DNA from: Thermoplasmata archaeon
Lineage (GTDB): Archaea; Thermoplasmatota; Thermoplasmata; Lutacidiplasmatales; UBA184
Direction of reading: 5' to 3'
Assembly (NCBI GenBank): GCA_021817245.1
Contig: JAKAVQ010000006.1
Coordinates: forward strand, 66,001-130,000
DNA length: 64,000 nt
This document shows positions 25,685-59,255 of this stretch, piece by piece. How positions within the stretch are numbered: the stretch's first letter is position 1; every line of letters begins with the position of its first letter. A program made the position numbers and the translations under genes. The notes under the pieces are model-generated. The model ran no database searches, was not told where the DNA came from, and saw only the letters and a list, made by a program, of their open reading frames with translations.

Positions 25685-26059
25685 TTACTCGAGGAGGTCT
25701 TCGAGCTCGCTCGCCACGAGCGTCAAAAGCTGGTCGAGGGAACGATTCTTGAGCTCGGTGATGTGCCCCGCGTCGGTCTCGAGCCGGGCCATGAACTCGT
25801 CGCCGTCGCGCACGAAGGAGAGCGAGAGCACGTGGCGTCGTCCGCCCGGAAGCGGTACCTCGAGGGTCGGGGTCGAGGAGGCGGCGGAGGAGGAGCCGGA
25901 CGGTCGCGCCGTCCCCTTCGCCGGCCGTGCCGGTTTCGACGGCTTGGCGGGGGCCTTGACCGCCGGCTTGGTCGCTCCCTTGGCCCCCGGTTTCGGGTGG
26001 GGGACCGGGGACTTGCCCGGGCGGCGGGGCGGCGCTTTCTGACGGCGGGCGGAGGGCAT
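25685..26059 (-). CDS. Hypothetical protein with Lys/Pro/Ala-rich N-terminal tail
   Basis: 124 aa; N-terminus [27 protein letters not shown] followed by a compact C-terminal domain. Confidence 0.3.
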
Positions 26060-26185
26060 CGCAGCGTCCTTGAGTCGGCCGCACCAACCCCCCCTATTTA
26101 TGGGTTGGGTCTGCCGCGACCGTCAGGGCCCGAGCTTCGATCGTCCGGGGGCACGCCTATAGATGGGACTCCCTTTTCCGAGGCG

Positions 26186-28057
26186 ATGGGGAGGGCTCCG
26201 GTAGCGGTGGATGCGGCCCCGGTGGAACCGGCCCCGACTGCCCGGCCGCCTCCACCGATGCGGCCGGAGACCGCGCTCTTCCTCGTCGGGCTCGCGCTCC
26301 TGCTCGTCTTCGTCGCGCTCGAGCCGTACCTCTCGTTCGCGGTGTTCGGCTCGGACTCCGGAGAGTACTACCGACTCACGGCCGACCTCGTGACGACCGG
26401 CGCGCTGCCGCACGGAAGCGCGTACACCGGTTGGGGGTCGGCGTACCCGGACTTCCCCGGCATCTTCCTCCTCGCCGCCGCGGGGGCGGGCGCGCTCGGC
26501 CTCGACCCCTTCTCGGCGCTGACCCTCCTCATCCCGACGGTCGCGGTCCTGTCGGTCTTCCCGCTCTTCCTCCTCTTCCGGCGGCTCTATCCCCACGACC
26601 TGGTCGCCCTGCTGGGCGCCGGCTTCGCCTCCGTCGTGATGCCCCGGCTCTTCTCGATCGCGCACCCCGCCCCGCTCGCCCTCGGGGATTTCCTCTGCGT
26701 GACCGCGCTGTGGCTGTTCCTCGAAGGACGCCGGGACCCGCGTTGGTACGTCCCTCTCGCGCTGACGTCGGGGGCCCTCATCGTCACCCACCATTTCTCC
26801 TCGTACTTCTTCGCCGTGAGCGCGCTCGGGGGACTCCTGTTCCTCGAGATCTGGCGTCCCGGACTCTGGAGCCGTCGGTTCCCGCGGCGCGAACTCCTCT
26901 TCCTGGCGGCGTTCGTCAGCGCGACGTTCCTTTACTGGTTCTACGGAACCACGGCGTTCGTCGCGAAGGTCCTCCTTCCGAGCCTCGGCACCGGGGTCGG
27001 CTTCGCGGCGTTCGAGGCGATCGGACTGATCTCGATCGCCGCGGCCGGACTCTTGGTCCGATGGCGCCGGGCGCGCGCGCGGAACCGGCCCCGCCGGCGG
27101 TGGGTCCGGCTTCCGACCGACCGCAGCCTATTGCGCGACGCGGTGGCGATCGGGCTCATCGTGTTCGCGCTCATCGCCGTCCTCACCATCGTGCCGGTGC
27201 CCGGCACGGGGCAGACGACCCGCCCGGCGGCGATCCTCTGGTTCGCCCCGGTGCTCGGTCTCGGGATCGTCTGCGCCGGCAGCCGGCGGGCCCCGTCGCT
27301 CGCGCGCCTCGGTCCGCTCGCGCTCACCTGGACCGGCGCGCTGGGTCTCTCGGCGGGCGTGATGGTCGTGCTCTCGTTCCTCGGACCCGCGTTCCCGAAC
27401 GATCGCTGGGCGGCGAGCGCGACGAGCGTCGCCGACACGCTCTCTCCGGCCCGCCACGTCGAGTACCTCCTGATTCCGGTGGGCCTGCTGGTGGCGATCG
27501 GCGTCGCCCGCCTCGTGAGCCGCGCCGGGGCCGTTGGCGGCCGTCGGGCGCTCGTCGCGGCCGCCCTCGGGGCCGTCGTGCTCCTCGCGGCCAACGCGGC
27601 AATCGTCTACCCACCGCCCGCCGATTTCGGGAACTTCCAGGAAGGGTTGACGAACGGCGACGCGGCGCTGTGGCTGTGGGTGGGGGTGGCGGCCCCGCCG
27701 ACCTGGGCCGTCGCGAGCGACCACCGGCTGAGCTCGATGATCTTCGGTTTCGACGGAAATCCGGCGACGTGGGTGACCACCCCGGCCCTGTTCAACGGGA
27801 ACTCCTCGGATTGGCCGGCCGCGGAGGCCGAGTTGCGGCTCGCCGAGGCGCCGAACGGGGACCACCTCCACCCGATCGCGCTCGTCGCGATCGATTCCGT
27901 CATGTACTCGGGCGTCGCGTTGGACCCGGCATCGCTCGCCGAGCCGCTCAGCCCGGCCGCGATCGCCTGGTTCTCGGGGCTCCCGTTCGTCCCGCTCTAC
28001 GAGAACGGCCAGAACGTCGTCTACCTGGTCGACGCGCCGTACCTCTCGTACGGGTAA
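26186..28057 (+). CDS. Large polytopic membrane protein, possible glycosyltransferase (GT-C/GT39-like fold)
   Basis: About 620 aa from the ATG at 26186; more than 12 predicted TM helices plus a C-terminal soluble domain; sits among glycan-related genes. Confidence 0.5.
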   Translation: MGRAPVAVDAAPVEPAPTARPPPPMRPETALFLVGLALLLVFVALEPYLSFAVFGSDSGEYYRLTADLVTTGALPHGSAYTGWGSAYPDFPGIFLLAAAGAGALGLDPFSALTLLIPTVAVLSVFPLFLLFRRLYPHDLVALLGAGFASVVMPRLFSIAHPAPLALGDFLCVTALWLFLEGRRDPRWYVPLALTSGALIVTHHFSSYFFAVSALGGLLFLEIWRPGLWSRRFPRRELLFLAAFVSATFLYWFYGTTAFVAKVLLPSLGTGVGFAAFEAIGLISIAAAGLLVRWRRARARNRPRRRWVRLPTDRSLLRDAVAIGLIVFALIAVLTIVPVPGTGQTTRPAAILWFAPVLGLGIVCAGSRRAPSLARLGPLALTWTGALGLSAGVMVVLSFLGPAFPNDRWAASATSVADTLSPARHVEYLLIPVGLLVAIGVARLVSRAGAVGGRRALVAAALGAVVLLAANAAIVYPPPADFGNFQEGLTNGDAALWLWVGVAAPPTWAVASDHRLSSMIFGFDGNPATWVTTPALFNGNSSDWPAAEAELRLAEAPNGDHLHPIALVAIDSVMYSGVALDPASLAEPLSPAAIAWFSGLPFVPLYENGQNVVYLVDAPYLSYG

Positions 28058-33971: not shown

Positions 33972-34976
33972 ATGACGAACGGAACCTCGGAAGAGGAGGG
34001 CATCGGCCTGCTCACCCCGCAGGCGGAGAAGCCCGTCCCGAAGCCGACGGTGGCGCCGCCCCCGGTCGCCCCCGCGGCGCCGGCCGCTCCGCCGACCCCG
34101 CCCGCGCCGCCGAAGGTCGATCTTACCGGCCTCCTTTCGCTCAAGGCCGCCGACGACACGACCCGCGAGGTCACCGCCGGCACGGTCACGACGCTGAGCG
34201 CGGTGCTGCTGAGCCGCGCCGCTGAGCCGGTCTCGGTCAGTCTCTCGATCGAGGTGGGGTACACCTCGACCTACCCCGGCGAGGGGGCCGAGTGGCCCGT
34301 ACGCTGGCTCCCTCCGGGCAAGCGGAGCTCGGTCGAGCTCTTTCCCCGCAAGGAGACCCACGCGATCTCCCTCGCCCCGAACACCGGCCAGCCGCTCTCC
34401 TTCGAGATCACCGCGCCGGTCGGCGTGCGCTACGGCGACCGGGTCGAGGTCCGGCTGGGCGTCACCGGTCCGAGCGGCGGCGCGCCGGTCCGGCTCACCC
34501 TCGCATGCGTCGCGCGGCAGGCCGTCCTCGCGATCAAGACCTCCCGAGGGTACGAGCGCGAGGTCGCCGACACGCTGCTCGCCCGCGCGGAGGAGAAGGC
34601 CGATGTCGTCTTTTCCCTCCTCGTCCCGTCGTCGCTGCGCGGGTACGTCTTTGCCGAAGGAATGAGCTTCGAAGGCGTCCGCGAGATGCTAAAGGGGATC
34701 CGCAAGGCGCGTGGCCTCGTCGAGGGCGAGACGACCCTCAAGGAGGTCGAGCCGCTCCTCGTCCCGAAGATCACGGTCGAAGGGTTCGTCGAAGGGGCGA
34801 TCGTGGAGCTGATCTCGGGCCCGTTCAAGGGCGAGAAGGCTCGGGTCAAGAAGATCGACCAGGCGAAGGAGGAGATCACGGTGGAACTGATCGAGGCCGT
34901 CGTCCCGATCCCGGTGACGGTGCGCGGAGACCACGTCCGCATGCTGGAGAGGGGAGGTGCGAAGGGTGGCGGTTGA
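33972..34976 (+). CDS. spt5: Transcription elongation factor Spt5 (NusG homolog) with an unusual ~180-aa N-terminal extension
   Basis: NGN domain (QAVLAIKTSRGYEREVADTLLARAEEKADVVFSLL...GYVFAEG) plus KOW (GAIVELISGPFKGEKARVKKID); a GGAGG Shine-Dalgarno-like site precedes the ATG at 33972. Confidence 0.7.
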   Translation: MTNGTSEEEGIGLLTPQAEKPVPKPTVAPPPVAPAAPAAPPTPPAPPKVDLTGLLSLKAADDTTREVTAGTVTTLSAVLLSRAAEPVSVSLSIEVGYTSTYPGEGAEWPVRWLPPGKRSSVELFPRKETHAISLAPNTGQPLSFEITAPVGVRYGDRVEVRLGVTGPSGGAPVRLTLACVARQAVLAIKTSRGYEREVADTLLARAEEKADVVFSLLVPSSLRGYVFAEGMSFEGVREMLKGIRKARGLVEGETTLKEVEPLLVPKITVEGFVEGAIVELISGPFKGEKARVKKIDQAKEEITVELIEAVVPIPVTVRGDHVRMLERGGAKGGG

Positions 34977-35815: not shown

Positions 35816-36304
35816 CTACTGGACGGCGATCTTGACCTCGGAGCTCTGCGGCGTCGGGTGCTGCTTCGGCAGCTCGAGTTCGAGGAGTCCGTTCTCCACC
35901 TTTGCCTTCGCATCGGTCGCCACGACCGGTTCGGGGAGCTCGAGGCTGCGGTAGTAGCCGGCGTAGGCCCGCTCGCGGTGGACGTACGCCGCTTCCTTCT
36001 GCTCGGTCTCGGACGCGCTCTCGCCGCGGATCTCGACGAGGTTCCCACGGACCCGGATGTCGAGCTTCTCCTTCGGGATGCCGGGGATCTCGGCGACGAT
36101 CTTGTACGCCGAGCCGGTGTCGCTCACGTCGGTCCGGGCCGCGCGGAACAGGCTCGGCTCGGTGGCCCCGATCGCGGAGTACGGTCGCCCGAAGGGAGCG
36201 ATCTCCCAGCTCTCGAAGAACCGGTTCCGCATCTCGTCGAACCACTGGTCGAGGTCGGTCCACGGGTCGCGCGCCTTCTCACGCTTCTGGATCTCTCTCG
36301 TCAT
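35816..36304 (-). CDS. hsp20: Small heat shock protein (Hsp20/alpha-crystallin family)
   Basis: 162 aa; alpha-crystallin domain (YKIVAEIPGIPKEKLDIRVRGNLVEIRGE...AKVENGLLELELPK). Confidence 0.85.
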   Translation of the reverse strand: MTREIQKREKARDPWTDLDQWFDEMRNRFFESWEIAPFGRPYSAIGATEPSLFRAARTDVSDTGSAYKIVAEIPGIPKEKLDIRVRGNLVEIRGESASETEQKEAAYVHRERAYAGYYRSLELPEPVVATDAKAKVENGLLELELPKQHPTPQSSEVKIAVQ

Positions 36305-36344: not shown

Positions 36345-36881
36345 CTATATAATAGATTGTAATGGCCCGGTCCCAACCGCCGTGGATGCCGGGACTCCGG
36401 CACTCCACTCGAGCAGGACAAAGCGCGCGAACGCACGCGCACAGTCGAGGGCCCCGGCGGAAAGCGGACCCTCGAGGGTCTCGACCTCGAGACGGAGCGG
36501 TCGTGGGTAGACGAACAGGCTACGCGCGCGGCAAGCCTCCTCGATGTCGCCGGCGGCCCCGGGCCGGATCCACCGTTCGGCACGCCGGCGCTCTTCGTCC
36601 GTGCGGCCGAGCGGCCCGTAGGTGTCGAACACCACAACGGCCCTCAGGTCCCCCGTGCCGGGTCCGAGACCCCGGACGAAGCGGGCGACCGGCCGGGTCA
36701 TCCGGCCGAGGTGCGTCGGGCCTCCGAGGAAGAGAAGTTCGGAGCCGGTCGGGACTCCCGATCCCTCCCGAAGGGGCCACATCTCGACCGCATGCCCTTC
36801 GTCCCGGACTTCCCCGGCGATCGCCTCGGCGACCGATCGGGTGTTGCCGTAGACGCTGTCGTAGGCGACCGCGACCTTCAT
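36345..36881 (-). CDS. Flavodoxin-family protein
   Basis: 178 aa; MKVAVAYDSVYGNTRSVAEAIA flavodoxin N-terminal signature. Confidence 0.6.
   Translation of the reverse strand: MKVAVAYDSVYGNTRSVAEAIAGEVRDEGHAVEMWPLREGSGVPTGSELLFLGGPTHLGRMTRPVARFVRGLGPGTGDLRAVVVFDTYGPLGRTDEERRRAERWIRPGAAGDIEEACRARSLFVYPRPLRLEVETLEGPLSAGALDCARAFARFVLLEWSAGVPASTAVGTGPLQSII
36346..36354 (-). promoter_or_regulatory. AT-rich TATA-box-like element upstream of hsp20
   Basis: TTTGCATTACTATATAATAGATTGTAATGG: the only AT-rich island in the region, 40-50 bp upstream of the hsp20 start on the minus strand. Confidence 0.4.
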
Positions 36882-37018: not shown

Positions 37019-38227
37019 ATGCCGCTCGCGACGGCAACGCCGCAGGCCGGCTTCGGAGGGCAGGTCGTGGAGGAGGTGAGGGTCGGCGAGCGGCGCACGC
37101 TCGACCGGCAGCGGTTCTCCCGGCTGTTCGAGGCGCTCGCGGGCGCGGGGTACTCGATCGTCGGACCGACCGTGCGCGATGGGGCGATCGTCTACGACCA
37201 GATCCGGTCGGTCGAGGACCTTCCGATCGGCTGGACGGACCGCCAGAGTGGGGGGAGCTACCGGCTCGAGCGGCGGGGCGACGCGGCGCTCTTCGGCTAC
37301 ACGGTCGGCCCGTCCTCCTGGAAGAAGTACCTCTTCCCCGCGCGAGAGCGCCTCTGGACAGCGACCCGCATCGGCGACTCGTTCACGGTCCGCCCCGAGC
37401 CGGTCGAGCCCACCCGGCTCGCCTTTTTCGGGATGCGGGCGTGCGAGCTTTCGGCGCTCGCCGTGACCGACCGCGTGTTCGCGGGCGGCCCGGTGACCGA
37501 CCCCGGCTACCGGACCCGGCGCTCCTCGATCCTGCGCATCGCAGTGCAGTGCGGGCAAGCGGGCGGGACCTGCTTCTGCGTCTCGATGGGCACGGGGCCC
37601 GGCGTACGGGATGGGGCGGACCTCGTGCTGACCGAGATCCTGGACGCGGGGCCGCACCGCTTCCTGCTCGAGCCACGGACCGAGGAGGGGGCCGCGGTCC
37701 TGTCGCGGATCGCCTCGGAGCTCGTGCCCGCCGCGGCGGGGGAGGCCCGCATCGCGGAGGCGATCGTCGCCCGGACGGCGGCGTCGATGGGCCGCACGAT
37801 GGAGGCGACCGGTCTCCGCGAGCTCCTCCGGGAGAATCTCGAACACCCGCGCTGGCAGCTCGTCGCGGCTCGCTGTCTCTCCTGTACCAACTGCACCATG
37901 GTCTGCCCCACGTGCTTTTGCAGCGCGCAGGAGGAGGTGCCGGACCTCGACGTCACGAAGGTCGAGCGCTGGCGACGCTGGGACTCCTGCTTCAACCTCG
38001 CGTTCACCGAGCTCCACGGGGCGAGCGTCCGCAAGACCGGCCTCTCCCGGTACCGTCAGTGGCTGACCCACAAGCTCGGGACCTGGCACGACCAGTTCGG
38101 CACGTCCGGTTGCGTCGGCTGCGGCCGCTGTATCACCTGGTGCCCGGTCGGGATCGACCTCACGGAAGAGATCGGGGCGATCCGCGCCGGCCCAGGGCCG
38201 GCGGCCGCACCGGGAGGGAAGCCGTGA
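37019..38227 (+). CDS. [NiFe]-hydrogenase-associated iron-sulfur subunit (sulfhydrogenase beta / AsrA-like), multiple 4Fe-4S sites
   Basis: 402 aa; CGQAGGTCFC, CLSCTNCTMVCPTCFC, CVGCGRCITWCP cysteine clusters. Confidence 0.7.
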   Translation: MPLATATPQAGFGGQVVEEVRVGERRTLDRQRFSRLFEALAGAGYSIVGPTVRDGAIVYDQIRSVEDLPIGWTDRQSGGSYRLERRGDAALFGYTVGPSSWKKYLFPARERLWTATRIGDSFTVRPEPVEPTRLAFFGMRACELSALAVTDRVFAGGPVTDPGYRTRRSSILRIAVQCGQAGGTCFCVSMGTGPGVRDGADLVLTEILDAGPHRFLLEPRTEEGAAVLSRIASELVPAAAGEARIAEAIVARTAASMGRTMEATGLRELLRENLEHPRWQLVAARCLSCTNCTMVCPTCFCSAQEEVPDLDVTKVERWRRWDSCFNLAFTELHGASVRKTGLSRYRQWLTHKLGTWHDQFGTSGCVGCGRCITWCPVGIDLTEEIGAIRAGPGPAAAPGGKP

Positions 38228-38694
38228 GCTCCCGGACGACGGAGGACTTTCGCGAGGCGGTCCGTCGGCACCCATTCCTCGAGGGCCTCGACCCGGCGTT
38301 CCTCGACGCGATGGTCCGCCTTGGGGTCGAACGTCGGTTCCGGGTGGATGAGCATCTGGCGCGCGAAGGTGCGCCCGCGAACGTGCTCTACATCCTCCTC
38401 GACGGAAAGGTCGCGCTCGAGGTCGGGGCCGCGGACCATCCGGCCCTCACCGTCCAGACGGTCGGGGCCGGCGAGGTCCTCGGCTGGTCCTGGCTCGTCG
38501 CGCCGTACCGCTGGCGCTTCGATGCCCGTGCGGTGAAGCCGGTGCATGCCGTGGAGATCGAAGGGGGGGCGCTGCGTCGTCTCCTCTCCGAGCACCCGGA
38601 CTGGGGCTACCAGTTCCTGCTGCGATTCCTTCCCGTCCTGGCCGAACGCCTCGAGAACACGCGCATCCAGCTCCTGGACATCCATGCTCGCTGA
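38224..38694 (+). CDS. Cyclic-nucleotide-binding (CAP/Crp effector-type) domain protein embedded in the hydrogenase operon
   Basis: About 156 aa; cNMP-binding fold pattern (VLYILLDGKVALEV...GAGEVLGWSWLVAPYRWRFDARAVKPVHAVEI...LLRFLPVLAERL); GTG start overlaps the hydB stop (GTGA) and the 3' end overlaps the hydG start. Confidence 0.6.
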   Translation: MSSRTTEDFREAVRRHPFLEGLDPAFLDAMVRLGVERRFRVDEHLAREGAPANVLYILLDGKVALEVGAADHPALTVQTVGAGEVLGWSWLVAPYRWRFDARAVKPVHAVEIEGGALRRLLSEHPDWGYQFLLRFLPVLAERLENTRIQLLDIHAR

Positions 38695-39550
38695 CGTGGC
38701 CCCGGACCCCACCAGTTCCGCCGCCGCCGGCCACCCGCTCGCCCCCCTCCCGTACCGGGTGCGCGCCGTGGCGACCGAGACCGCGGACACCACGACCCTC
38801 ACCATCGAGCCCCGTTCGACCCGTAGCGTTCCGGCCCCCGCCCCCGGCCAGTTCGTAATGTTGTACGCGTTCGGCGTCGGGGAATCCCCGATCGGGGTCA
38901 GCGCGCACCGCGCCGACGGCACCCTGGTCCACACGGTGCGGAACGTGGGGAAGGTGACGTCGGCGCTCGCCCGCCTCACTCCCGGAGACACGGTCGGCGT
39001 CCGCGGTCCGTACGGGAGGGGCTGGCCGCTTCAAGAGGCCCGGGGCCAGGACCTCGTGATCGTCGCGGGAGGCCTTGGCCTCCCGCCGCTCCGACCGGTA
39101 CTGTACGAGGTCTTCGAGAACCGGGACCGGTACGGGCGGGTCGAGGTCATCTACGGGGCGCGGACCCCCAAGGACCTCATCTACTACGAGGAGCTCCAGA
39201 GCTGGCGGCGACGCAGCGATCTGCGAATCCAGGTCACGGTCGACGCGGCGGGGCGAGACTGGTACGGTGACGTCGGGGTCGTTACGACCCGACTTCCCGA
39301 CGTGCGGTTCGACGGTTCCCGCACGTCCGCGTTCATCTGCGGCCCCGAGATCATGATGAGACTCACCGCCCAGGCCGTGGTCGCGCGGGGGGTCCGCCCC
39401 GAGGCCACCTGGGTCTCGATGGAGCGGAACATGAAATGCGCGGTGGCCCTCTGCGGGCACTGCCAGTTTGGCCCCACGTTCGTCTGCCGGGACGGTCCGG
39501 TGCTGAGCTACCGGGCGCTCGAGCCGTTCCTCGCGGTCAAGGAGGTGTAA
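38684..39550 (+). CDS. Hydrogenase gamma subunit (FAD/NAD(P)-binding oxidoreductase with 2Fe-2S; AsrB/HydG-like)
   Basis: 289 aa; ferredoxin-reductase-type FAD/NAD-binding fold plus C-terminal [17 protein letters not shown]. Confidence 0.75.
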
Positions 39551-39554
39551 GCTG

Positions 39555-40352
39555 GTGCCGGCCCCCCTCCGTCCCCGGTTGGCGGTCTGGAAGTTCGCCT
39601 CCTGCGACGGTTGCCAGCTCTCGGTCCTCGACCTCGAGGACGATCTGCTCGCCATCGCCGACCGGCTCGAGATCGCGAACTTCCGCGAGGCGTCGAGCGC
39701 CGTCGTCGACGGACCGTACGATCTTTCGCTGGTCGAGGGCTCGGTGACCACCCCCGAAGACGCCCGCCGGATCCGCGAGGTCCGGGCCGAGTCGCGGGTG
39801 CTCGTGACGATCGGCGCGTGTGCGACCGCCGGCGGGATCCAGTCGCTGCGCAACTTCGCCGAGTTCGAGGAGTTCCGCCGGGCCGTCTATGCCCGGCCCG
39901 AGTACCTCGACACGCTCGCGACATCGACCCCGATCGCCGACCACGTGCCGGTCGACTTCGAGCTGCGCGGTTGTCCGATCTCGAAACACCAGCTCCTCGA
40001 GGTCGTCTCGGCGTTCCTCCAGGGGCGCAGCCCGAACACCCCGAACGAGAGCGTCTGCATCGAGTGCAAGCGACGCGGCACGGTCTGCGTCCTCGTCGCG
40101 CGGGGTACCCCCTGCCTCGGGCCGGTCACCCAGGCCGGGTGCGGGGCGATCTGTCCCGCATTCGACCGCGGCTGCTACGGCTGCTTCGGACCCCAGGGCT
40201 CGCCGAACATTCCCTCCATGGTTGGCCGGCTCCACGAGCTCGGCATGACGCCGGGCGCCGTGCAGCGCGTCTTCCGTACCTACAACGCGATGGCCCCCGC
40301 GTTCAAGGGCGCGGCGGACGCCGCCGGAGCGGAGAAGGGGACCGAACCATGA
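39555..40352 (+). CDS. [NiFe] hydrogenase small (delta) subunit
   Basis: [24 protein letters not shown], cysteine-rich C-terminus ([21 protein letters not shown]...CYGCFGP). Confidence 0.8.
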
Positions 40353-42163
40353 CGGAGAGCGAGCGGACGATCACCGTCGACTACCTCGCGCGGGTCGAAG
40401 GGGAGGGCTCGCTTCGGGTCCGGCTGAGGGGCGAGACCGTCGAGGACGTCGAGCTGCGGATCTTCGAGCCTCCGCGCTTCTTCGAGGCGTTCCTCCGCGG
40501 CCGCTCCTACCTCGAGGCACCCGACATCACCGCGCGGATCTGCGGGATCTGCCCGGTCGCCTACCAGATGAGCAGCGCCCACGCGCTCGAGCGCGCGCTC
40601 GGTGTCACGGTCGGGGGTGCCCTCCGTGACCTCCGGCGGATCCTGTACTGCGGGGAGTGGGTGGAGAGCCACGCGCTCCACATCTACCTGCTCCACGCCC
40701 CCGACTTCCTCGGATACTCCGACGCCGTCCGGCTCGCGAAGGATCACCCCGACGCCGTCCGTCGGGGCCTGGCCCTGAAGAAGGCGGGCAACCACCTGAT
40801 GCAGGTCCTGGGCGGGCGGGAGATCCACCCGATCAACGTCCGGGTCGGCGGGTTCTACCGGGCGCCGAGCCGGGCGGAGCTCGACGCGCTGCGGCCCGAG
40901 CTCGAGCAGGCGCTCGAGATCGCTGAAGAGACCGTACGATTCACCGCCGGCTTCGATTTCCCCGAGATCGAGGAGGACTACGAGTTCGTCGCGCTGCGCC
41001 ACCCGGACGAGTATCCGATGAACGAGGGGGAGGTCGTCTCGAGCCACGGCGTTCGCCTGCCGATGGACCGGTTCGAGGAGGTCTTCGAGGAGGTCCAGGC
41101 CCCGTACTCGAACGCGCTCCAGTCCGTCCACAAGGGGGAGGGCTCCTACCTGGTGGGGCCGCTCGCGCGCTACGCGCTCAACTCCGATCGACTCCCCCCG
41201 CGGGCGAGGACCGCCGCCCGGGCCGCCGGGCTCGCACCGGTCGAGCGGAACCCGTACCGGAGCATCGTCGTGCGGTCGGTCGAGGTCGTCCTTGCGCTCG
41301 AGGAGGCGCTCCGCCTGATCGATCGGTACCGGCCGCCGGACGCCCCGTGCGTGCCGCTCCCGGCGACGTTCCCCGCGACCGGTGCCGCCTGGATCACCGA
41401 GGCCCCCCGGGGGATGCTCTACCACCGCTACCGGCTCCGGGCGGACGGGCTCATCGAGGAGGCGAAGATCGTCGCGCCGACCTCCCAGAACCAGAAGCGG
41501 ATCGAGGACGACCTGCGCCACCTGGTGGGAAAGTCGCTTCGGTGGGACGACGCGGCGCTCACCACGGCGTGCGAGCGCGCGGTCCGCAACCACGACCCGT
41601 GCATCTCCTGCGCGACGCACTTTCTCACCCTCGAGGTCGAGCGCATCCCGGAGGGGACGGGGGAATCCCCGGAAGCGAACCGGGCGGCGCCGACGCTCGT
41701 CGTCGGGCTCGGGCAGGAGGATCGCGGAGACGACCGGGCCGGGATCGAGGTCGTGCGCGTCCTGCGCCGACGGTTCCGCGGGACCGAAGTCGAGTTCCTC
41801 GAAGGACCCGCGGATGTCGCGCTGCTTCTCGACCGCTGGTCCGGCCGCGAGCGAACGATCGTGGTCGACGCGGTGCGCTCCGGTCGACCCGCGGGCACGA
41901 TCCAGGTGCTGGAGGTCCTGGGCGACCGCCTGCCGCCGACCTACGGCGGCTCCTCGACCCACGGGCTCGGCCTTGCCGAGGCCGTGGCGCTCGGCCGGGC
42001 GCTGGACCGCATGCCCCGCCACCTCACGATCTGGGGGATTGAGGTCGGCACGATCCGGATCGGGAGCCCCCCCTCCGGGCCGGTCCTCCGGGCGGTCGAG
42101 GACGTGACGGACCGCCTGGCGCGCGAGCTCGGCGGCCCCCGGCGCGCCGCGCGGGAGACCTGA
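40349..42163 (+). CDS. [NiFe] hydrogenase large (alpha) subunit fused in-frame to a HycI/HyaD-type maturation endopeptidase domain
   Basis: N-terminal Ni-binding RICGICP (L1) and C-terminal DPCISCATH (L2) motifs; 24-aa linker; then protease-like [21 protein letters not shown]...[15 protein letters not shown]; no stop codon between the two (604 aa total). Confidence 0.75.
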
Positions 42164-42176
42164 CGGAGGGCGCTCG

Positions 42177-42503
42177 GTGCACGAAGAGGCGCTGCTGCGG
42201 GACCTCGTCCGCAAGGTGGAAGAGGTTGCCCGGGCCCATCGGGTCGAGCGCGTCGAACGGGTGCGGCTCTGGGTCGGGGCGCTCTCCCACCTGACCGAAG
42301 GGACCCTCCGCGCCCGGTGGTCGATGGCGACCATCGGTTCGGTGGCCGAAGGTTCGGGGCTCGAAGTGGAGAGCTCCCTCGACGTCCACGACCCGCGGGC
42401 GCAGGGAGTCGTCCTGCAGAGCCTCACTCCCCGGAGCCCGTGGAAAGGGAGCGGGCATCCGCCGTCCGTAAGGGAAAAGCCCCCGGTTTCCCCGTCGAGT
42501 TAA
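42177..42503 (+). CDS. hypA: HypA-like hydrogenase nickel-insertion protein lacking the C-terminal zinc finger
   Basis: MHEEALLRDLV...ERVRLWVGALSHL...GSVAEGSGLEVE aligns with the HypA N-terminal Ni domain (MHE motif); the C-terminal 43 aa contain no cysteine. Confidence 0.5.
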   Translation: MHEEALLRDLVRKVEEVARAHRVERVERVRLWVGALSHLTEGTLRARWSMATIGSVAEGSGLEVESSLDVHDPRAQGVVLQSLTPRSPWKGSGHPPSVREKPPVSPSS

Positions 42504-43825: not shown

Positions 43826-44569
43826 ATGGCGGAGGACGGGGCCGCGCTCTGCGCCCGCTTCAGCCTCGCGACCAATCGGCTGCAGTACTGCGGCCCGAAC
43901 GATGCCGAGGGACCGCTCTACCGGGCGATCGTGGAGGGGACCGACCTCGACCGCGCCCGAAACGCGCTGCGGCGCTTCGAGGCGCTGTATCCGTATCTCG
44001 CGGCGATCGGGGAGCGGCACCAGCTTGACCCGTTCGACGCCCGGGTCGTCGAGGCGTACTGGATCGGAAACCGACTGCTCGACGACTTCGGGCGCGAGCG
44101 GTTCATCGCGCTCCTTCACACGCTCGGCCGTCGGGGCCTTCCCCCCCGCACGGTGGATCGCCTGGTGGCCCACCTCCCCGAGCGCCCGCTGCCGCATCAC
44201 GCGTTCCACGTGGCGTACGTCGGAGTCGGCGAGGTGACGGGTCATGTGCCGACCACGCTCGCGAACCTTGAGGCGTGCCGTCCGGCACCCGCCCGGGTGA
44301 CCCGGTGCTTGCCGGGAGAGCTCGAAGTCGAACGACGCCCGCTCGTGGTCGACGGAGGCCGACTGGAGCTGGGACCTCCGACGCGGGAGCGGCGGCCGTT
44401 CGACCCGCGCATCGTTCCGGAGCCGAGGGTCGGCGACTGGGTGGCCCTCCACTGGGGCCATCCGGCCCTCCTCCTGCACGAGGCTCAACGGGCCGCGCTC
44501 GAGGAGTACACCCGTCGGTCGATCGCCGCGGCGAACGAGGCGCTTCCGGCGCTACGAACGCTGCGGTAA
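43826..44569 (+). CDS. Conserved hypothetical protein
   Basis: 247-aa ORF translationally coupled to the upstream transporter gene; no recognised motif. Confidence 0.4.
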   Translation: MAEDGAALCARFSLATNRLQYCGPNDAEGPLYRAIVEGTDLDRARNALRRFEALYPYLAAIGERHQLDPFDARVVEAYWIGNRLLDDFGRERFIALLHTLGRRGLPPRTVDRLVAHLPERPLPHHAFHVAYVGVGEVTGHVPTTLANLEACRPAPARVTRCLPGELEVERRPLVVDGGRLELGPPTRERRPFDPRIVPEPRVGDWVALHWGHPALLLHEAQRAALEEYTRRSIAAANEALPALRTLR

Positions 44570-44629
44570 GCCGCCGGGCCCAGCGCTCCCCGGGAGGCAA
44601 CCGCGGCGGGCCGGGCGCGCGCCCGAGGA

Positions 44630-45940
44630 TCAGAAGGACAGTCGGGAGAGGCCCGGCAGGGTGATCGAGACGAGGCCGGCGACGACGAGCCCGAGCCCGT
44701 CCAGCGCCAGGAGCGGCTCGAGAGGCAGCCGGGCGGAGAGTTCGCCGACCACGAGGACCGCGATCGACCCCGAGACCCCCGTGAAGAGGTACAAGTTCGC
44801 GCTGAGTCGGCCGAGGAGCTCCGGCGCGTACGACCCCTGGACCCAAGTGTACTTCGCGGTGTACCGGACCGAGACCGCGGCGCCCGCTACCGCCACCAGG
44901 AACGCCGGGAGCGCGAGCGGCACGCCCGTGGGAAGGAGGGCGAGAAGGCTGACGCCGGCGAGGACCGGCGTCAGGATCAGCAGTCGACCGACGTGCCGTC
45001 GGGGATTGGCGTGACCGACGAGAATGCCGGCGAGGGAGCCCCCGAGCGCGAACGCCGTCACAAGGACCGCGTAGGCCGACGCCGGCGTGCCGAAGCGCTC
45101 GAAGGCGATCGCCGGGAGGAGCAGTGGCGGCACCGCCGAGAAGAATCCGAAGAGGACGTCCACGCCCGCCAGCGACCGCAACGATCGACCGGCCCGGCCG
45201 CGGAACGCGTCCCACCCCCGGCGGAACGTTTCGAGGAACCTCGTGTCGGGCGGATGCTCGACCCGCAACCGGAGCGGGAGCGCGATGAGGAACGCGCCGA
45301 GCAGGAGGACGGCGTAGGCGCTCGCGCCCCCGTAGGGCCCCACGAAGTAGAGGAGCGCGCCGCCGCCCGCGTAGCCGCCGACCTGGGTCCCGACGGACAC
45401 GACGCTGGAGAGCCCGTCGGCGACGAACAGCTGTCGCTTCGGGAGGACGAGCGGGGGGGCGATCATGAACGTCGCCCAGACGAAGTCCCAGAGCACCGCG
45501 AGGACCAGGACGAGACCGAGCAGTACCGGCACCGAGAGCGCGCCGCCACGGAGCTCGACCGCGAGCAGCGCTGCCGCGAGGGCCTGGATCGGATAGCAGA
45601 CGAGGAGGACGGTGCGCTTGTCGCGCGCCCGATCGACGAGCGGGGCGATGAGGAAGGTCAGCGTGTAGACTCCGTACTCGATGAACAGCACCGCGCCCGC
45701 GACGAGAAGGTTCCCCGAGAGCCCGTAGGCCAGGAAGAGAACGGAGACCGAGTAGACCGCGTAACCCGCCCCGGCCAGCGTCCCAGACCCGAGGAGCAAA
45801 AGGTAGCGGCGGTTACGGAGGAGCTCGGACCATCCCCCGGTCTGGTACTCGACCTTGTCGCTCCGTGGGGAAGGGCCCGACACCGTCGGCGGATCGTTGC
45901 CGGTCGATCGTGCCATCGACGGGCCTCTCCTCACCGACAC
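44630..45940 (-). CDS. MFS transporter
   Basis: 436 aa; 12 TM helices; major-facilitator-like architecture. Confidence 0.75.
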   Translation of the reverse strand: MSVRRGPSMARSTGNDPPTVSGPSPRSDKVEYQTGGWSELLRNRRYLLLLGSGTLAGAGYAVYSVSVLFLAYGLSGNLLVAGAVLFIEYGVYTLTFLIAPLVDRARDKRTVLLVCYPIQALAAALLAVELRGGALSVPVLLGLVLVLAVLWDFVWATFMIAPPLVLPKRQLFVADGLSSVVSVGTQVGGYAGGGALLYFVGPYGGASAYAVLLLGAFLIALPLRLRVEHPPDTRFLETFRRGWDAFRGRAGRSLRSLAGVDVLFGFFSAVPPLLLPAIAFERFGTPASAYAVLVTAFALGGSLAGILVGHANPRRHVGRLLILTPVLAGVSLLALLPTGVPLALPAFLVAVAGAAVSVRYTAKYTWVQGSYAPELLGRLSANLYLFTGVSGSIAVLVVGELSARLPLEPLLALDGLGLVVAGLVSITLPGLSRLSF

Positions 45941-46653
45941 CCGAGTTCCCCGGGACGGCCGCGTACCCAGAAGCGGCAGACCGGGTCCCCGGCGACCACA
46001 CGATGGCTCACCCGCACATCGGCGTCGAGAAGGTCCCCGAAGAGACGGCGTTCGACGTCGCAGGCTTCGCCGTACCGCTCGGCGATGGCCACGATCGGGC
46101 AGTTGTGCTCGAGGATCGCCTGTCCCCCCTTCGTCGGCCGACCGGCCGACGCCATGTATCCCTCCTCGTCGCGGATGCGGGCAAGCTCGCGGGTGCGGCC
46201 CACGAGATCGAGGCCGGCGAGCCGGCGGGAGTGGCGCGTCCGAAGCTCGGAGGCGCGCTCTTGGAGCATCTCGAGGACAGCGCGTCGCCCGTGCCGACGC
46301 TCGAGGAAGTCGAGCGCGCTCAGGGACATCTGGCGGTAGGCCTCGGGAAATATCCGTTGGGAATCTGCCGATAGGAAGTAGACCGCGAACGGGCGTCCCC
46401 GGCGCCCGTGCTGGTACTCCCGCTCCACGAGCCCCCTCCCCTCGAGCTCGGCGAGATGCTTCCAGGCGGCCGCGCGAGAGACCCCGAGCGCTCCCGCGAC
46501 CTTGACGAGCGAGGAGGGGGAGCGCTTCAGGAAGAGCAGGATCGCGCGCTTCCCGGCGGAGAATCCGGTGGGGATCCCGGGCGTCGCCGGGGCCGCGGGC
46601 AAGATGCAGGAAGGCGGCCCCGATTCATGAACCATGGGGTTGACAAAGTTCAC
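45931..46653 (-). CDS. Winged-helix (ArsR-like) transcription regulator with Cys-containing C-terminal domain
   Basis: LFLKRSPSSLVKVAGALGVSRAAAWKHLAELEGRGLV HTH; C-terminal C-x13-C...C pattern; 3' end overlaps the start of the downstream MFS gene. Confidence 0.5.
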   Translation of the reverse strand: MNFVNPMVHESGPPSCILPAAPATPGIPTGFSAGKRAILLFLKRSPSSLVKVAGALGVSRAAAWKHLAELEGRGLVEREYQHGRRGRPFAVYFLSADSQRIFPEAYRQMSLSALDFLERRHGRRAVLEMLQERASELRTRHSRRLAGLDLVGRTRELARIRDEEGYMASAGRPTKGGQAILEHNCPIVAIAERYGEACDVERRLFGDLLDADVRVSHRVVAGDPVCRFWVRGRPGELGCR

Positions 46654-49927: not shown

Positions 49928-51246
49928 GCCGGCTCCCCCCGCGCGGGGTGGCGACCTGGGGACTCGCCGACCTGGTCCTCGCGCATGAGGCGGGTCACTT
50001 CGGCCGGGTCGTTCGACCGCCCGAGCGCCCAGACCAGCTTCGCGTACGCCGTCTCGGGCAGAAGGTCGCCGAGGTAGAGCACGCCCGCCCGCAAGAGGTC
50101 GCGGCCCGTGGCGTAGACATACGGGTCCGAATCTCCGGCGAGGCACTGGGTCGTCATCCCGACAAGGATCCCCCGCACCGTCGCGGCGCGGATCCAGCCA
50201 AGGTGGCGCAACGCGACATGTCCGAGGCCGGTGCCCGCGAGGATCACCCCGCGAAGCGGTCGGACGAACTCCTCCGCGCGATGGGGGTCCAGCCCGGGAT
50301 AGAACCAGAGGAGACCGGCGCGATCGTCGAGCGGCAGCTCTGCCCTCGCGGGACCCGCTGCCGCCGAACGCACCGGACCGCTCAGGTGGACCTCCCCGTT
50401 CTCGACCTCGCCGAGCACGGGCCCGTTCCGGCTCTCGAAGGCATCCCTCCGGCTTGAGTGCATCTTGCGCACCCACGTACCGCGGTGGATCGCGAAGCGG
50501 GTATCGGAGAGGCCGGCGTGCATCACCACCACCACTTCCCCGATTCGGCGGTCGCGGGCAACGGCCGCCGCTGCGGCGAGATTGCTCGAGCCGTCCGAGG
50601 AGGGGCGATCGGGGGAGCGCTGGGCACCGACCAGCACGACCGGTCCGGGCAGGTCGCGCACGAGGAAGCTGAGCGCGGCCGCGGTAAATCCCAGCGTATC
50701 GGTCCCGTGAGGGATGACGATCCCCTCGGCCCCGTCCCGGAACGCGTCGACGACCTTCTCGGCGAGCGTTGCCCAGTCGGCCGGCACGAAGTCTTCGCTC
50801 AAGCGATCGAAGACCGGAACGATCCGAACTCGACCGCTCTTCCCGAGGTCCGGATAGAAGGCGAGGATCTCCCGCTCCTCGCGAACCGGACGCACCCCCC
50901 CGGTCTCGTAGTCGATACGGGAAGCGATCGTTCCTCCGGTGGCGAGCAAGGTGATCCAGCGGCCGGCCGCGTGCGGTCCACCCTCCGCGGGCGATCGGGG
51001 CTCGGCCCTTCGTTCCGGAGTAGGCGTCGGCTCGAGCAGCCGGTAGGAGGCCTCGGCCCCGATCCGGACCCCGACGTTGTACCCGCTTTCGAGCTTCAAG
51101 ATCAAGATCCGTTCTCCCGAGAGCTCGTGGCGCGGCACGACGCTCCCGACGAAGACTCCACCTCGGCCGTCCGAAAGCTCGATCCGCTGGCCCATCGGGA
51201 GGCCCCGCAGCGCTTCCCAGGGATCTACGGCATCACGGACCGACAT
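49924..51246 (-). CDS. gatD: Glutamyl-tRNA(Gln) amidotransferase subunit D
   Basis: 440 aa; asparaginase-type domain (LATGGTIAS...HGTDT); stop overlaps the gatE start. Confidence 0.85.
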   Translation of the reverse strand: MSVRDAVDPWEALRGLPMGQRIELSDGRGGVFVGSVVPRHELSGERILILKLESGYNVGVRIGAEASYRLLEPTPTPERRAEPRSPAEGGPHAAGRWITLLATGGTIASRIDYETGGVRPVREEREILAFYPDLGKSGRVRIVPVFDRLSEDFVPADWATLAEKVVDAFRDGAEGIVIPHGTDTLGFTAAALSFLVRDLPGPVVLVGAQRSPDRPSSDGSSNLAAAAAVARDRRIGEVVVVMHAGLSDTRFAIHRGTWVRKMHSSRRDAFESRNGPVLGEVENGEVHLSGPVRSAAAGPARAELPLDDRAGLLWFYPGLDPHRAEEFVRPLRGVILAGTGLGHVALRHLGWIRAATVRGILVGMTTQCLAGDSDPYVYATGRDLLRAGVLYLGDLLPETAYAKLVWALGRSNDPAEVTRLMREDQVGESPGRHPARGEPA

Positions 51247-51333
51247 CGATCGTGCCCCCGCGCTTCCCCCTGCCGCGGGGAGGCGTCCCCGGTAATAAAG
51301 CGTCGGGCGGCCGCTCTCCCGTCGGGTCCGGCC

Positions 51334-51340
51334 TTTTATA
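51334..51340 (+). promoter_or_regulatory. TATA-box-like element (TTTTATA) upstream of tRNA-Arg
   Basis: AT-rich heptamer about 44 bp upstream of the tRNA 5' end. Confidence 0.35.
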
Positions 51341-51383
51341 CCGGACCATCCTCGGCGCGCCCGGTAGGTCCACCACTTCGGAT

Positions 51384-51492
51384 GCCCGTGTGGGGTAGCT
51401 ACGGGTCCGGGGCAATCCCCCCGGCTCGCTGCAATGGATTATCCTAGAGGCCTGCGGAGCCTCAGACCTGGGTTCGAATCCCAGCACGGGCG
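51384..51492 (+). tRNA. tRNA-Arg (anticodon GCG) with a ~35-nt intron in the D-loop; probable integration target
   Basis: Acceptor GCCCGTG/CACGGGC with discriminator G; anticodon arm GAGGC-CTGCGGA-GCCTC; T arm CTGGG-TTCGAAT-CCCAG; inserted block TACGGGTCCGGGGCAATCCCCCCGGCTCGCTGCAA sits at the same D-loop point as in tRNA-Pro. Confidence 0.7.
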
Positions 51493-51544
51493 TCTAACTC
51501 CTTCTTCGAATAGTTCATATCCCCGTTGAACCTACCCCTATCGA

Positions 51545-52840
51545 ATGGCGAAGCGGATTGACCACCGACCCCTGCTCATGGACAAGCAAATCCGCACATG
51601 GTACGACGAGAACTCGCTTCGGTCGAGGCTGACCGCAGAGGTTAACCTTCGGCAACTCGGCCTCTTCTGTCACGTCACAGAAACCGATCCTCGACGACTC
51701 GTCCAGCTCGGTCAGAGAGATCCCGAGCGGCTGCACGGAACCCTCGTTCGATACGCGAAGACGCTCCAAGGATCGGGCCGGCTTCCGAGTTACATCGCAA
51801 AGACGTTCGTGGGAATCAAGGGGTGGCTTCGTTTCAACCGCGTCGAGTTCGACCAGTTTCCCCGACTCCGAGTGGTCCAGGGCGAATCCATCCGAGAGGA
51901 GCGCGTCCCCACCCAGGAGGAGCTTCGAAGGATCCTCTCGACCTACTCGGCCAGGGGGCGCGTCGTTTCCCTGCTCATGGCGCACACCGGAGTCAGACCC
52001 GGCGTACTTGCAGCGATTGACGGTAGCGATGGCCTCCGGCTCTCCGATTTGAAAGACCTCGAGTTGGGTGCGGACCCCAAGTTCGGGCGTGTGCCCTTTC
52101 ACTTGGTCGTCCCGGCTCGGCTCTCCAAGACCTCGGTCGAGTACCACACCTTCGGGACGCCCGAACTCGCTGACGCGATCCTAGCGTACCTCGCCGAGCG
52201 GCGACAACGAGGGGAGGAACTCAGACCTTCGTCCCCGGTTGTTACCGTCGACGCGATGGGCGCCCGGACAAAGCTACGCGAGAAGTCGAAGACCGGTTTC
52301 ATCACGACGCCGATGATGATGCGCGCTCTCCGGGACGGCCTCAAGGCGATCCTCCCGAGCGCGCGGACCTACGTGTTCCGCGCCTACTGTTCGACCCAGA
52401 TGGTCTCGGCACGGATCGACCGAGACGTGCGCGAGGCGATCTTGGGTCACTCCCTCGGAGTGAGCGGCCGGTACAACCTCTCGAAGAAGCTACACCCTTC
52501 GGTGGTCGAAGAGCTCCGCCGGGAGTACGCAAGGGCCGTTCCTTACCTCGAGTCGGGCCGCCCCAAGGAGGATCGCGCGACTGTCCTCGAGGGAGTCCTC
52601 GCGGCGCTGCTCAAGGAGAAGGGGGTCAAGGACGACAAGATCAGCGAGGTCCTCGAGGGCAAGGTTGCGGGGGACGAACTCGAACGGATCCTGGGCTCAC
52701 GCAAGGCGGAGCCCATCCAAAGGGTGGTCCCGACGACGGGGGTTTCGGAGCTGCTCTTGCTAGGCTGGGAGTTCGTTTCCCCGCTCGGGACCGACCAGGC
52801 AGTTCTCCGGGCGCCCGCGAACGGCACGGCCCCCGTGTGA
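51545..52840 (+). CDS. int: Tyrosine-type site-specific integrase/recombinase
   Basis: 431 aa; catalytic-domain pattern LMAHTGVRPG (Arg), ILGHSLGVSGRY (His-x-x-Arg ... Tyr) with an N-terminal SAM-like domain. Confidence 0.8.
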   Translation: MAKRIDHRPLLMDKQIRTWYDENSLRSRLTAEVNLRQLGLFCHVTETDPRRLVQLGQRDPERLHGTLVRYAKTLQGSGRLPSYIAKTFVGIKGWLRFNRVEFDQFPRLRVVQGESIREERVPTQEELRRILSTYSARGRVVSLLMAHTGVRPGVLAAIDGSDGLRLSDLKDLELGADPKFGRVPFHLVVPARLSKTSVEYHTFGTPELADAILAYLAERRQRGEELRPSSPVVTVDAMGARTKLREKSKTGFITTPMMMRALRDGLKAILPSARTYVFRAYCSTQMVSARIDRDVREAILGHSLGVSGRYNLSKKLHPSVVEELRREYARAVPYLESGRPKEDRATVLEGVLAALLKEKGVKDDKISEVLEGKVAGDELERILGSRKAEPIQRVVPTTGVSELLLLGWEFVSPLGTDQAVLRAPANGTAPV

Positions 52841-52935
52841 GACCGCCACCCGGCTCCGGGGGACCCGCCATGAGCACCGACCTTCGGGCAGACGATTGTT
52901 ACCGAAACGGGTCAACGGTCCACCACTCAGTAGGG

Positions 52936-54225: not shown

Positions 54226-54229
54226 CGAC

Positions 54230-55060
54230 CTACCCGTAATTCATCACAAGCAACTCGTCAATCGCGCCGCGGGCCGTCCCCTTGGAGTTGATGGCTCGCT
54301 TTGCCTTCAACGCCTCAATCCGGAACCCGTCGTAGAGCGTCTTGACGAGCGGCGTCGCGGAGTTGGAGAGCATCACGAGGACCCCCCGCTTGTCGAGCCG
54401 GCGATAGGTTTCGGCAAGCTTCCTTTGCTCTCGGTTTCCGAAGTCCTCTTTGGTGTAGCTCGTGAACTTGGACGTTTCGCTCAACGGGTGGTAGGGGGGG
54501 TCCAAGTAAACGAAGTCCCCGATCTTGACCCTCGCACACACCTTCTGGTAGTCGGCGAGGACAATGTTCTTACCGCGGAGAAGGGCACTCGTCGCGGGCA
54601 AGTTCTCCCGGTCGTAGAGAGTTGGGTTCTTGTAGCCGCCCCACGGGACGTTGAAGTTGCCGTCGGAGTTTACCCGATACAAGCCGTTGAAGCACGTCTT
54701 GTTCAGGAAGATGGTTCGTGCGGCTCGCTCGACCGACGAGAGCGTAGATGGGTCCGTGGCTCGAACCTTGTAGAAGTAGGCTTCCTCGGTTCGTTGCGGG
54801 AGGTGTTCGTCGAGCGCCCGCATTAGGCCGCCGGGGTCATCGCGAACGATTGTGAACGTGTTGACGAGTTCGGGGTTCGAGTCGGACAACATGGCCTTCT
54901 CGGGCTGGAGATGGAAGAAGACGGCCCCTCCCCCGAGGAACGGCTCGAAGTACGTTCGAAAGTCCTTCGGGAAGAACGGCTCCATCTGGGGAATAAGTTG
55001 GGCCTTTCCCCCCGCCCACTTGAGAAAGGGGCGCGCCGGGAGGAGGGTCTGGGCCAGCAC
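54230..55060 (-). CDS. dam: DNA adenine methyltransferase (Dam/D12 class N6-adenine MTase)
   Basis: 276 aa; motif I FLKWAGGK...FEPFLGGGAVFF and catalytic DPPY (VYLDPPYHPLS). Confidence 0.85.
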   Translation of the reverse strand: MLAQTLLPARPFLKWAGGKAQLIPQMEPFFPKDFRTYFEPFLGGGAVFFHLQPEKAMLSDSNPELVNTFTIVRDDPGGLMRALDEHLPQRTEEAYFYKVRATDPSTLSSVERAARTIFLNKTCFNGLYRVNSDGNFNVPWGGYKNPTLYDRENLPATSALLRGKNIVLADYQKVCARVKIGDFVYLDPPYHPLSETSKFTSYTKEDFGNREQRKLAETYRRLDKRGVLVMLSNSATPLVKTLYDGFRIEALKAKRAINSKGTARGAIDELLVMNYG

Positions 55061-55522: not shown

Positions 55523-55634
55523 TCGACAAACCCGGGCGATGTGACGCTCTCCGACACCAAGCCGGTTGCAGATCGCGAAGAGACGGGGGGCGGCACTGGG
55601 AGATGCGACGTTACCCGTTACTGTGGAGGCGGCC

Positions 55635-57436: not shown

Positions 57437-57468
57437 CGAGTACCCTCCCCCCTCCTTCCCGGGTACAA

Positions 57469-59241: not shown

Positions 59242-59255
59242 GCGACGTTGGGAGG

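Follow-up and report, generated by a model that had tools for sequence, protein, structure and literature searches.

The window analysed here, a stretch of 64,000 nucleotides (nt) from contig JAKAVQ010000006.1 of a Thermoplasmata archaeon (assembly GCA_021817245.1) whose nearest relatives are Thermoplasmata metagenome-assembled genomes, carries an operon for a [NiFe]-hydrogenase in which a gene for a small protein with the cyclic-nucleotide-binding (CNB) fold is placed between the genes of the iron-sulfur (FeS) beta subunit and of the FAD gamma subunit. This product, here termed the CNB protein, is the subject of the present analysis. The genes of the cluster and the features recognized at the CNB gene are the following (aa, amino acids; AF2, AlphaFold2):

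37019–38227, + strand: hydrogenase beta subunit (FeS; HydB/AsrA-like), 402 aa; Fer4_22, E=2.7e-31; PDB 9nez_B, E=1.1e-29
38213–38217, + strand: GGAGG Shine-Dalgarno-like site, read from the sequence, 6 nt before the GTG of the CNB gene and within the 3' end of the beta gene
38224–38694, + strand: CNB-fold (cNMP_binding-like) protein; GTG start, 156 codons, TGA stop
38470–38532, + strand: equivalent of the phosphate-binding cassette, residues 83–103, GEVLGWSWLVAPYRWRFDARA, from HMMER alignments to GlxR (3r6s) and PKG (3shr)
38596–38688, + strand: long C-terminal helix, residues 125–155, with the motif PV.AERLENTR.QLLD, from DSSP on the AF2 model
38684–39550, + strand: hydrogenase gamma subunit (FAD/NAD(P) and FeS; HydG/AsrB-like), 288 aa; NAD_binding_1 and DHODB_Fe-S_bind
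39555–40352, + strand: hydrogenase delta (small) subunit, 265 aa; Oxidored_q6, E=9.4e-23
40349–42163, + strand: [NiFe] large subunit (alpha) and HycI-type protease in a single 604-aa reading frame; NiFeSe_Hases and HycI; 9nez_D, E=6.5e-69
42177–42503, + strand: HypA nickel metallochaperone, at the end of the hydrogenase cluster; Pfam HypA, E=1.5e-11

On sequence comparison, the enzyme encoded by this cluster appears to be a relative of the group 3b [NiFe]-hydrogenases, cytosolic and NAD(P)-linked, because its large and beta subunits match Pyrococcus furiosus sulfhydrogenase I (SHI) best and the best NCBIfam matches are sulfhydrogenase families (sulfhyd_ShyA/HydA, ShyB/HydB, HydG/AsrB and ShyD/HydD). 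All these scores lie under the equivalog cut-offs, and the proteins are therefore relatives of the Thermococcales enzymes and not those enzymes themselves. The gene content is that of group 3b operons, with a sulfhydrogenase/Hyh-like alpha, an AsrA-like beta, an AsrB-like gamma and an Oxidored_q6 small subunit; in gamma, a FAD_binding_6 match fell just under the threshold. P. furiosus SHI (9nez, 9nf0, 9e15) belongs to the same class, its alpha entries (9nez_D, 9e15, 9e1j) being matched with E about 1e-68 to 1e-69, and the alpha subunit of the Thermococcus kodakarensis cytosolic NiFe-hydrogenase (5yxy) follows with E=1.3e-65. A preliminary description of this DNA, made from the letters alone, had spoken of a group 3b/3c locus: the 3b part stands, while 3c can be dropped, the best matches being sulfhydrogenase subunits.

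Since the GC content of the window is about 70% and long spurious open reading frames (ORFs) are numerous in all frames, the reality of the CNB ORF was checked. Its GC content at the three codon positions (0.79/0.44/0.85) matches the pattern of the flanking genes, and neither the antisense nor the alternative-frame ORFs lying over it gave any Pfam match. The comparison of synonymous and non-synonymous changes was confined to the 4 differences from the relative L088, which is 99.2% identical. The possibility of a frame artefact, raised in the preliminary description, is the one that would follow from the scarcity of stop codons in DNA of this composition, and long non-coding ORFs in every frame of the window indeed lend it some background plausibility. 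It is nonetheless contradicted by the coding-type codon-position GC, by a significant Pfam match together with hundreds of homologues that are full-length and equally long, by a synteny conserved across domains of life and by overlapping frames devoid of Pfam domains, so that we regard it as excluded. The CNB ORF is a real gene.

The junctions with both neighbours are tight. The GTG start codon (38224–38226) and the TGA stop codon of the beta gene (38225–38227) share the sequence GTGA, and the last 11 nt of the CNB gene are also the first of the gamma gene, whose ATG is at 38684, the codon at 38681 being TCC. The same 11-nt overlap was found in the independent gene calls of the relatives L088, L098 and L001, and the call of the 402-aa beta gene is identical in L088. 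The preliminary description was thus right in placing an ORF of about 156 aa between an FeS beta and a FAD gamma subunit of a hydrogenase operon, and in the GTGA overlap at its start, but the overlap at its end, given there as 14 nt, is to be corrected.

Conservation of the arrangement and fusion to the beta subunit

A word-indexed search retrieved 875 homologues of the CNB protein, nearly all of 156 aa among the 120 listed, while an exhaustive profile search against 1.84 billion cluster representatives gave 387 clusters at E<=1e-30. In a scan of one genome per species, at least 583 confirmed loci encode a relative. Synteny was compared in the best 80 of these loci, using the window proteins as tblastn probes. 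The CNB gene adjoins the beta and/or the gamma gene in 74 of the 80, and the order beta-CNB-gamma-delta-alpha was found wherever the contig was long enough. These loci come from archaea (Thermoplasmata and Bathyarchaeia) and from bacteria, namely Acidobacteriota, Planctomycetota (anammox members included), Bacteroidota/Ignavibacteria, Nitrospinota/Nitrospirota, Actinomycetota, one alphaproteobacterium and one heliobacterium. So that the presence of the CNB gene was not itself selected for, four extra loci were picked by similarity of the beta subunit alone (KSB1/Zhuqueibacter, a JGI bin, Fraserbacteria and Bipolaricaulia), and in all four the CNB gene lies between beta and gamma. Annotated plasmid operons with the same arrangement are present in Rhodococcus (including strain DK17), Burkholderia, Paraburkholderia and Pandoraea.

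Over 76 loci, with start codons assigned heuristically, the beta and CNB genes overlap by 4 nt in 28 and by 14 nt in 17, and the CNB and gamma genes by 11 nt in 22 and by 4 nt in 18. Tight overlaps at both junctions are therefore a family trait, and because they are conserved across the family, co-expression of the CNB gene with its neighbours and a role of its product together with the enzyme are very likely, in line with the earlier view that these genes are almost certainly co-translated.

The beta-CNB-gamma arrangement is the rule for this hydrogenase clade. A CNB module in a hydrogenase operon had been described beforehand as unusual; in hundreds of species it is instead how the operon of this clade is normally laid out, and it is already present in published gene clusters. 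Indeed, in two papers a gene of this kind appears within a group 3b cluster, in one of them under the name HoxI, and NCBIfam holds no dedicated family for it. The gene of the window is an ordinary additional member of an annotated but uncharacterised family, and what is new here is the tryptophan-substituted cassette described below, together with an old and diversified lineage in which the CNB domain is fused to the beta subunit and accompanied by a second, free copy.

This fusion came to light in the exhaustive search of cluster representatives, in the form of a 542-aa protein (P0193) made of beta (Fer4_22) and a CNB domain with an intact GWSWL motif. It recurs in independent assemblies and is thus no accident of assembly. 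A further search seeded with P0193 collected 13 distinct 90% clusters of beta-CNB fusions (P0193, P0270 and P0273–P0283), of 539–546 aa and down to 49% identity, in all of which the CNB domain is attached to the C-terminus of beta through a conserved VCKTC linker. Examples are at L089:2924-5110, L090:1739-3925 and L092:7001-9184. On a contig of 148 kb, the complete operon reads beta-CNB fusion, free CNB, gamma, delta, alpha, HycI, HypF, HypC and HypD. In the fusion operons, the motif of the second, free CNB gene has decayed to GYCW...C. Neither a beta-CNB nor a CNB-gamma fusion was seen among the best 80 genome loci, the fusions being found only in the representative search. A 720-aa apparent fusion (P0284) was not used, as its contig carries fragmented and frameshifted genes.

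Being long-lived, the fusion is a classic indicator of physical association and argues for contact of the CNB protein with the beta subunit; the two CNB domains available per beta in the fusion operons would also fit a dimer. The earlier suggestion that the CNB protein is an apparent hydrogenase subunit gains support from these natural fusions. They bear as well on a different role, that of a chaperone in the assembly or maturation of the beta-gamma module, which would insert FeS clusters or FAD, or hold beta until gamma binds, and would be missing from the mature enzyme. The exact position of the gene between beta and gamma, its translational coupling to both, the frequent occurrence of maturation genes in hydrogenase operons (here HycI and HypA) and the existence of enzymes whose operons have no CNB gene are what such a chaperone would lead one to expect. 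A stable covalent fusion maintained down to 49% identity speaks instead for permanent association, the only characterised analogue, HoxI (see below), is a subunit of a purified enzyme, and we know of no chaperone role for the CNB fold. On balance, we consider a chaperone unlikely.

Fold and ligand pocket of the CNB protein

The search with the Pfam profile cNMP_binding (PF00027) matched residues 37–124 of the CNB protein over profile positions 2–89 of 89, with E=3.9e-12 and 46.4 bits against a gathering score of 27.5. In Pfam and NCBIfam, no second domain and no helix-turn-helix (HTH) family was found, the CRP and FtrB models scoring far below their cut-offs, and the protein ends at residue 156 with its C-terminal helix (H125–155), where transcription factors of the CRP/FNR type continue into an HTH. 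The proposed CAP/Crp effector-like domain without a DNA-binding part was thus correctly recognized. The AF2 model (predicted local distance difference test, pLDDT, 87.3; predicted TM-score, pTM, 0.81) consists of an N-terminal helix, a beta-roll and a C-terminal helix of 31 residues, with the order of strands and helices typical of CNB domains, in which a beta-roll of eight strands has an N-terminal helix and the B/C helices at its flanks. Foldseek returned a probability of 1.00 both to the cAMP domains of GlxR/CRP proteins (query-normalised TM-score, TMq, 0.74–0.76) and to 3mdp (target-normalised, TMt, 0.86).

GlxR (3r6s, 4cyd), the CRP of Mycobacterium tuberculosis (MtbCRP, 3i54) and the effector domain of Escherichia coli CAP have the same fold, long C-helix included, at 26–28% identity for GlxR and MtbCRP and 18–22% for CAP, with a sequence E-value of about 1e-8 for GlxR. 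Unlike these regulators, the CNB protein has no HTH, carries tryptophans in place of the cassette glutamate and arginine, and is encoded in an enzyme operon and not as a standalone regulator. The closest solved relative in sequence is 3mdp (Gmet_1532 of Geobacter metallireducens, 142 aa; E=9.7e-18 with the family profile), a structural-genomics entry labelled 'putative cyclic nucleotide-binding protein'. It too is made of a CNB domain only, shares the ...L..PY....ARA.KP pattern and is devoid of the canonical glutamate and arginine (G-V ... Y-T), but it reads G-V-S-S-L instead of G-W-S-W-L and has a tyrosine at the position of W97.

The pocket was compared with those of cAMP-bound GlxR and of PKG by HMMER alignments of the CNB protein itself and of a 25-sequence family profile. 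The canonical 'F-G-E-L...R-T' aligns with 'L-G-W-S...W-R', so that Gly-Glu corresponds to G87-W88 and Arg-Ser/Thr to W97-R98. In other words, the glutamate that contacts the ribose 2'-OH is replaced by Trp88 and the arginine that holds the phosphate by Trp97. Conservation was assessed over 84 sequences, comprising the window protein and 83 locus-derived ones. G83, E84, G87, W88, S89, W90, L91 and W97 are invariant in all 84 (GE..GWSWL...W), whereas position 98 is variable (R in 31, H in 21, K in 16, T in 4, and others). The motif is also kept across the representatives of clusters at 50% identity. In the 'G-D/E-x-F-G-E' stretch, the invariant E84 corresponds to the acidic residue that is not critical.

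The Gly-Glu and Arg-Ser/Thr pairs that mark functional cAMP/cGMP receptors are therefore not found in this family, and because both critical residues align with invariant tryptophans, canonical binding of cAMP or cGMP by the CNB protein is unlikely as judged from these alignments. For the GWSW family as a whole, annotation as 'cyclic nucleotide-binding' probably misleads. This bears directly on the initial idea that a nucleotide second messenger, bound by a genuine cAMP/cGMP receptor, gates electron flow or hydrogenase assembly. The above-threshold Pfam match, the cAMP-bound GlxR and MtbCRP as best structural neighbours, and the presence in or near the cassette of the invariant E84 and of R102 (72 of 84) would be in keeping with it. 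However, Trp88 and Trp97 take the place of the defining residues in every profile alignment to cyclic-nucleotide-binding structures, the residue next to Trp97 is variable, the closest solved relative is likewise devoid of both residues, and CNB folds with other ligands, or with none, are known. Structural matches of the first kind retrieved here are the cAMP-independent PKA regulatory subunits of trypanosomes, which take nucleosides, and the c-di-GMP-binding Clp. Gating by a second messenger is thus decidedly improbable.

Outside the pocket, the C-terminal helix has a polar motif that is almost invariant: R142, L143, T146, R147, Q149, L150 and D152 are each kept in at least 77 of the 84 sequences, and this helix may be a dimerisation or docking surface.

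Most bacterial members carry in addition a pair of cysteines (DGKCLRxKCE) at alignment positions 116 (57 of 84) and 121 (52 of 84), which could form a redox-sensitive or metal site. The pair is absent from the window protein (A116 and L121, nt about 38569–38586) and from the other Thermoplasmata members.

A proposed accessory subunit of group 3b hydrogenases

The nearest functional parallel is HoxI, a dimeric, CNB-domain subunit, labile to salt and pH, of the soluble hydrogenase HoxHYFUI2 of Cupriavidus necator (PMC3189943). It has been called regulatory (PMC12809855) and, according to a further paper (PMC12319191, citing Burgdorf 2005), is thought to bind NADPH. Like HoxI, the CNB protein consists of a CNB domain only, measures about 160 aa and has its gene in the same operon as the structural genes of a cytosolic [NiFe]-hydrogenase linked to pyridine nucleotides, and in both the cassette is non-canonical, HoxI keeping Gly-Glu and having a histidine for the arginine. 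The two differ in that the enzyme of C. necator (Ralstonia eutropha) H16 is an NAD+-reducing hydrogenase of group 3d, in that the HoxI gene follows hoxW at the end of the operon and serves an enzyme with Complex-I-type HoxFU, whereas the CNB gene of the window lies between an AsrA-like beta and an AsrB-like gamma, and in that HoxI has no GWSWL...W motif. Orthology was considered and rejected at 19–24% identity, and for this reason HoxI is taken as an analogue.

Taking synteny, junctions, fusions and pocket together, we propose that the CNB protein is probably an accessory subunit, in all likelihood dimeric, attached to beta, with a pocket that is empty or filled by a ligand other than a cyclic nucleotide, and modulating the enzyme without taking part in catalysis. 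CNB, beta and gamma would be made together from one transcript. The CNB protein would then bind the beta-gamma electron-transfer module, anchored to beta and probably as a dimer, by analogy with the HoxI dimer on the soluble hydrogenase, and would modulate activation, activity or stability of the enzyme in response to a non-cyclic-nucleotide ligand. Our leading guess is a pyridine nucleotide, the kind of ligand proposed for HoxI; alternatively, there may be no ligand at all. Because group 3b enzymes without a CNB gene exist, the subunit would be accessory and not catalytic, and dispensable for core catalysis.

Several observations weigh against this proposal. P. furiosus SHI is described as a four-subunit enzyme, and the Hyd3 cluster of Mycobacterium smegmatis is listed with beta, gamma, delta, alpha and protease only (PMC2799521). 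In the PDB, no hydrogenase-complex chain matched the CNB query, SHI beta and alpha entries included, and no orthologue of the CNB protein was found there. The resemblance to HoxI is at superfamily level only (24% identity over 97 aa by BLASTP; 19% and a probability of 95.9% by hhalign), and HoxI was absent among the 30 of 46 matches listed from the plasmid tblastn at E<=1e-3. When a natural beta-CNB fusion was modelled with AF2 from a 48-row alignment, 12 rows of which were fused sequences, pTM was 0.64, pLDDT was low over the FeS region and no fixed docking geometry emerged. As to the pocket, some nucleotide-like ligand would still be compatible with the invariant E84 and with R102, which is mostly conserved. 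The literature search found, for the CNB protein of group 3b enzymes, passing mention only and no functional study. Finally, 6 of the 80 loci hold orphan CNB genes away from any hydrogenase; in the plasmid operon of Streptomyces sp. NBC_01340, the gamma gene comes straight after beta and the CNB gene is missing; and a tandem two-CNB protein (P0123) is encoded beside an RND/Cus-type efflux cluster and not beside a hydrogenase.

The last three points could also be read as the signs of a free-standing signalling protein, merely co-transcribed with the hydrogenase and acting on other targets, for example in a response to hypoxia or stress. Besides the orphan and tandem forms, such a reading can call upon the Streptomyces copy, which adjoins CBS-BON and hemerythrin-ATPase genes, upon universal stress protein genes that, in Rhodococcus DK17 and at the locus L095, are no more than a few kb distant from the operon, and upon the HSP20 gene adjoining the operon in the window. 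Yet linkage in 74 of 80 loci, a fixed position between beta and gamma, overlapping codons and fusions with beta point to a direct role at the enzyme, and we give the free-standing protein little credence. Since tandem versions adjoin efflux genes, the GWSW CNB domain is nevertheless not exclusively a hydrogenase part.

The family member of Streptomyces NBC_01340 (L087:5953-6429; also L085) is found 12 kb away from the operon with its GWSW motif kept, after a P-type ATPase gene with a hemerythrin domain, and overlaps the start of a CBS+BON gene. The tandem two-CNB proteins, of 300–350 aa, are P0122, P0123, P0125 and P0128; GWSW is present in both domains of all four, and the later tryptophan is missing from the second domain of P0122. 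They were first weighed as a sign that the CNB protein is a dimer on the hydrogenase, and then dropped, P0123 being next to RND efflux genes and the contig of P0125 being too short to show its context.

Returning to the accessory subunit, its consequences concern an enzyme class in which the models, P. furiosus SHI and M. smegmatis Hyh, are four-subunit enzymes, while the common environmental version has a fifth conserved gene; the operon of the window belongs to a five-gene variant that is far more widespread than SHI and Hyd3/Hyh. In soils, in sediments and in some pathogens, the group 3b hydrogenases count among the most widespread of the cytosolic enzymes that metabolise H2, and they are under development for H2-driven cofactor recycling. 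Should the CNB protein prove to be a regulatory subunit whose ligand is not a cyclic nucleotide, this would explain how the enzyme is switched and would matter for the heterologous expression of active enzyme. A bolder version, which we hold as tentative and on the whole doubtful, is that the GWSW CNB proteins are a distinct and ancient clade and that, in most group 3b hydrogenases outside the Thermococcales, bacterial and archaeal alike, they act as a fifth subunit that senses a ligand. Their pocket, lined with tryptophans, would respond to some signal that is not a cyclic nucleotide, the NAD(P)H/NAD(P)+ state for instance, and would by an allosteric effect turn the enzyme from producing to consuming H2 and back, or from an active to a protected state and back. 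If true, this would give the CNB fold a new class of ligand and cytosolic H2 metabolism a general point of control.

Further observations in the window

In the 604-aa ORF at the end of the operon, the alpha subunit reads in frame into HycI, with the junction at about 41640–41700, where DPCISCATH is followed by FLTLEVER, a 16-residue linker and then the protease. The related loci, 58 of 58, have alpha and HycI as two genes divided by a stop codon and an ATG, and so does L098, the closest long relative. The read-through is either a real fusion or a sequence error; if real, the protease would form the very C-terminal extension that it cleaves off.

Just upstream of the operon and divergent from it are an HSP20 gene and a flavodoxin-like gene (35816–36304 and 36345–36881, both on the minus strand). 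L088 and L098 have both genes conserved, and L001 has HSP20; near the operon of Rhodococcus DK17 there are likewise a flavodoxin-domain gene and universal stress protein genes. This neighbourhood suggests a stress or hypoxia context.

Further upstream, the window encodes an Spt5 homologue with NGN/KOW domains and ribosomal protein L11, to which relative L001 adds GatD/GatE-type genes; this gene content indicates an archaeal genome. The Spt5 homologue (33972–34976, plus strand, 334 aa) has a long N-terminal extension, its NGN domain beginning only at residue 187; the corresponding gene calls are of 332 aa in L001 and 184 aa in the relative L002. As to base composition, GC falls from about 0.70–0.73 to 0.63–0.67 over the last 14 kb of the window (50001–64000), and strong excursions of AT skew are seen at 26001–28000 (-0.31) and 44001–46000 (+0.26).

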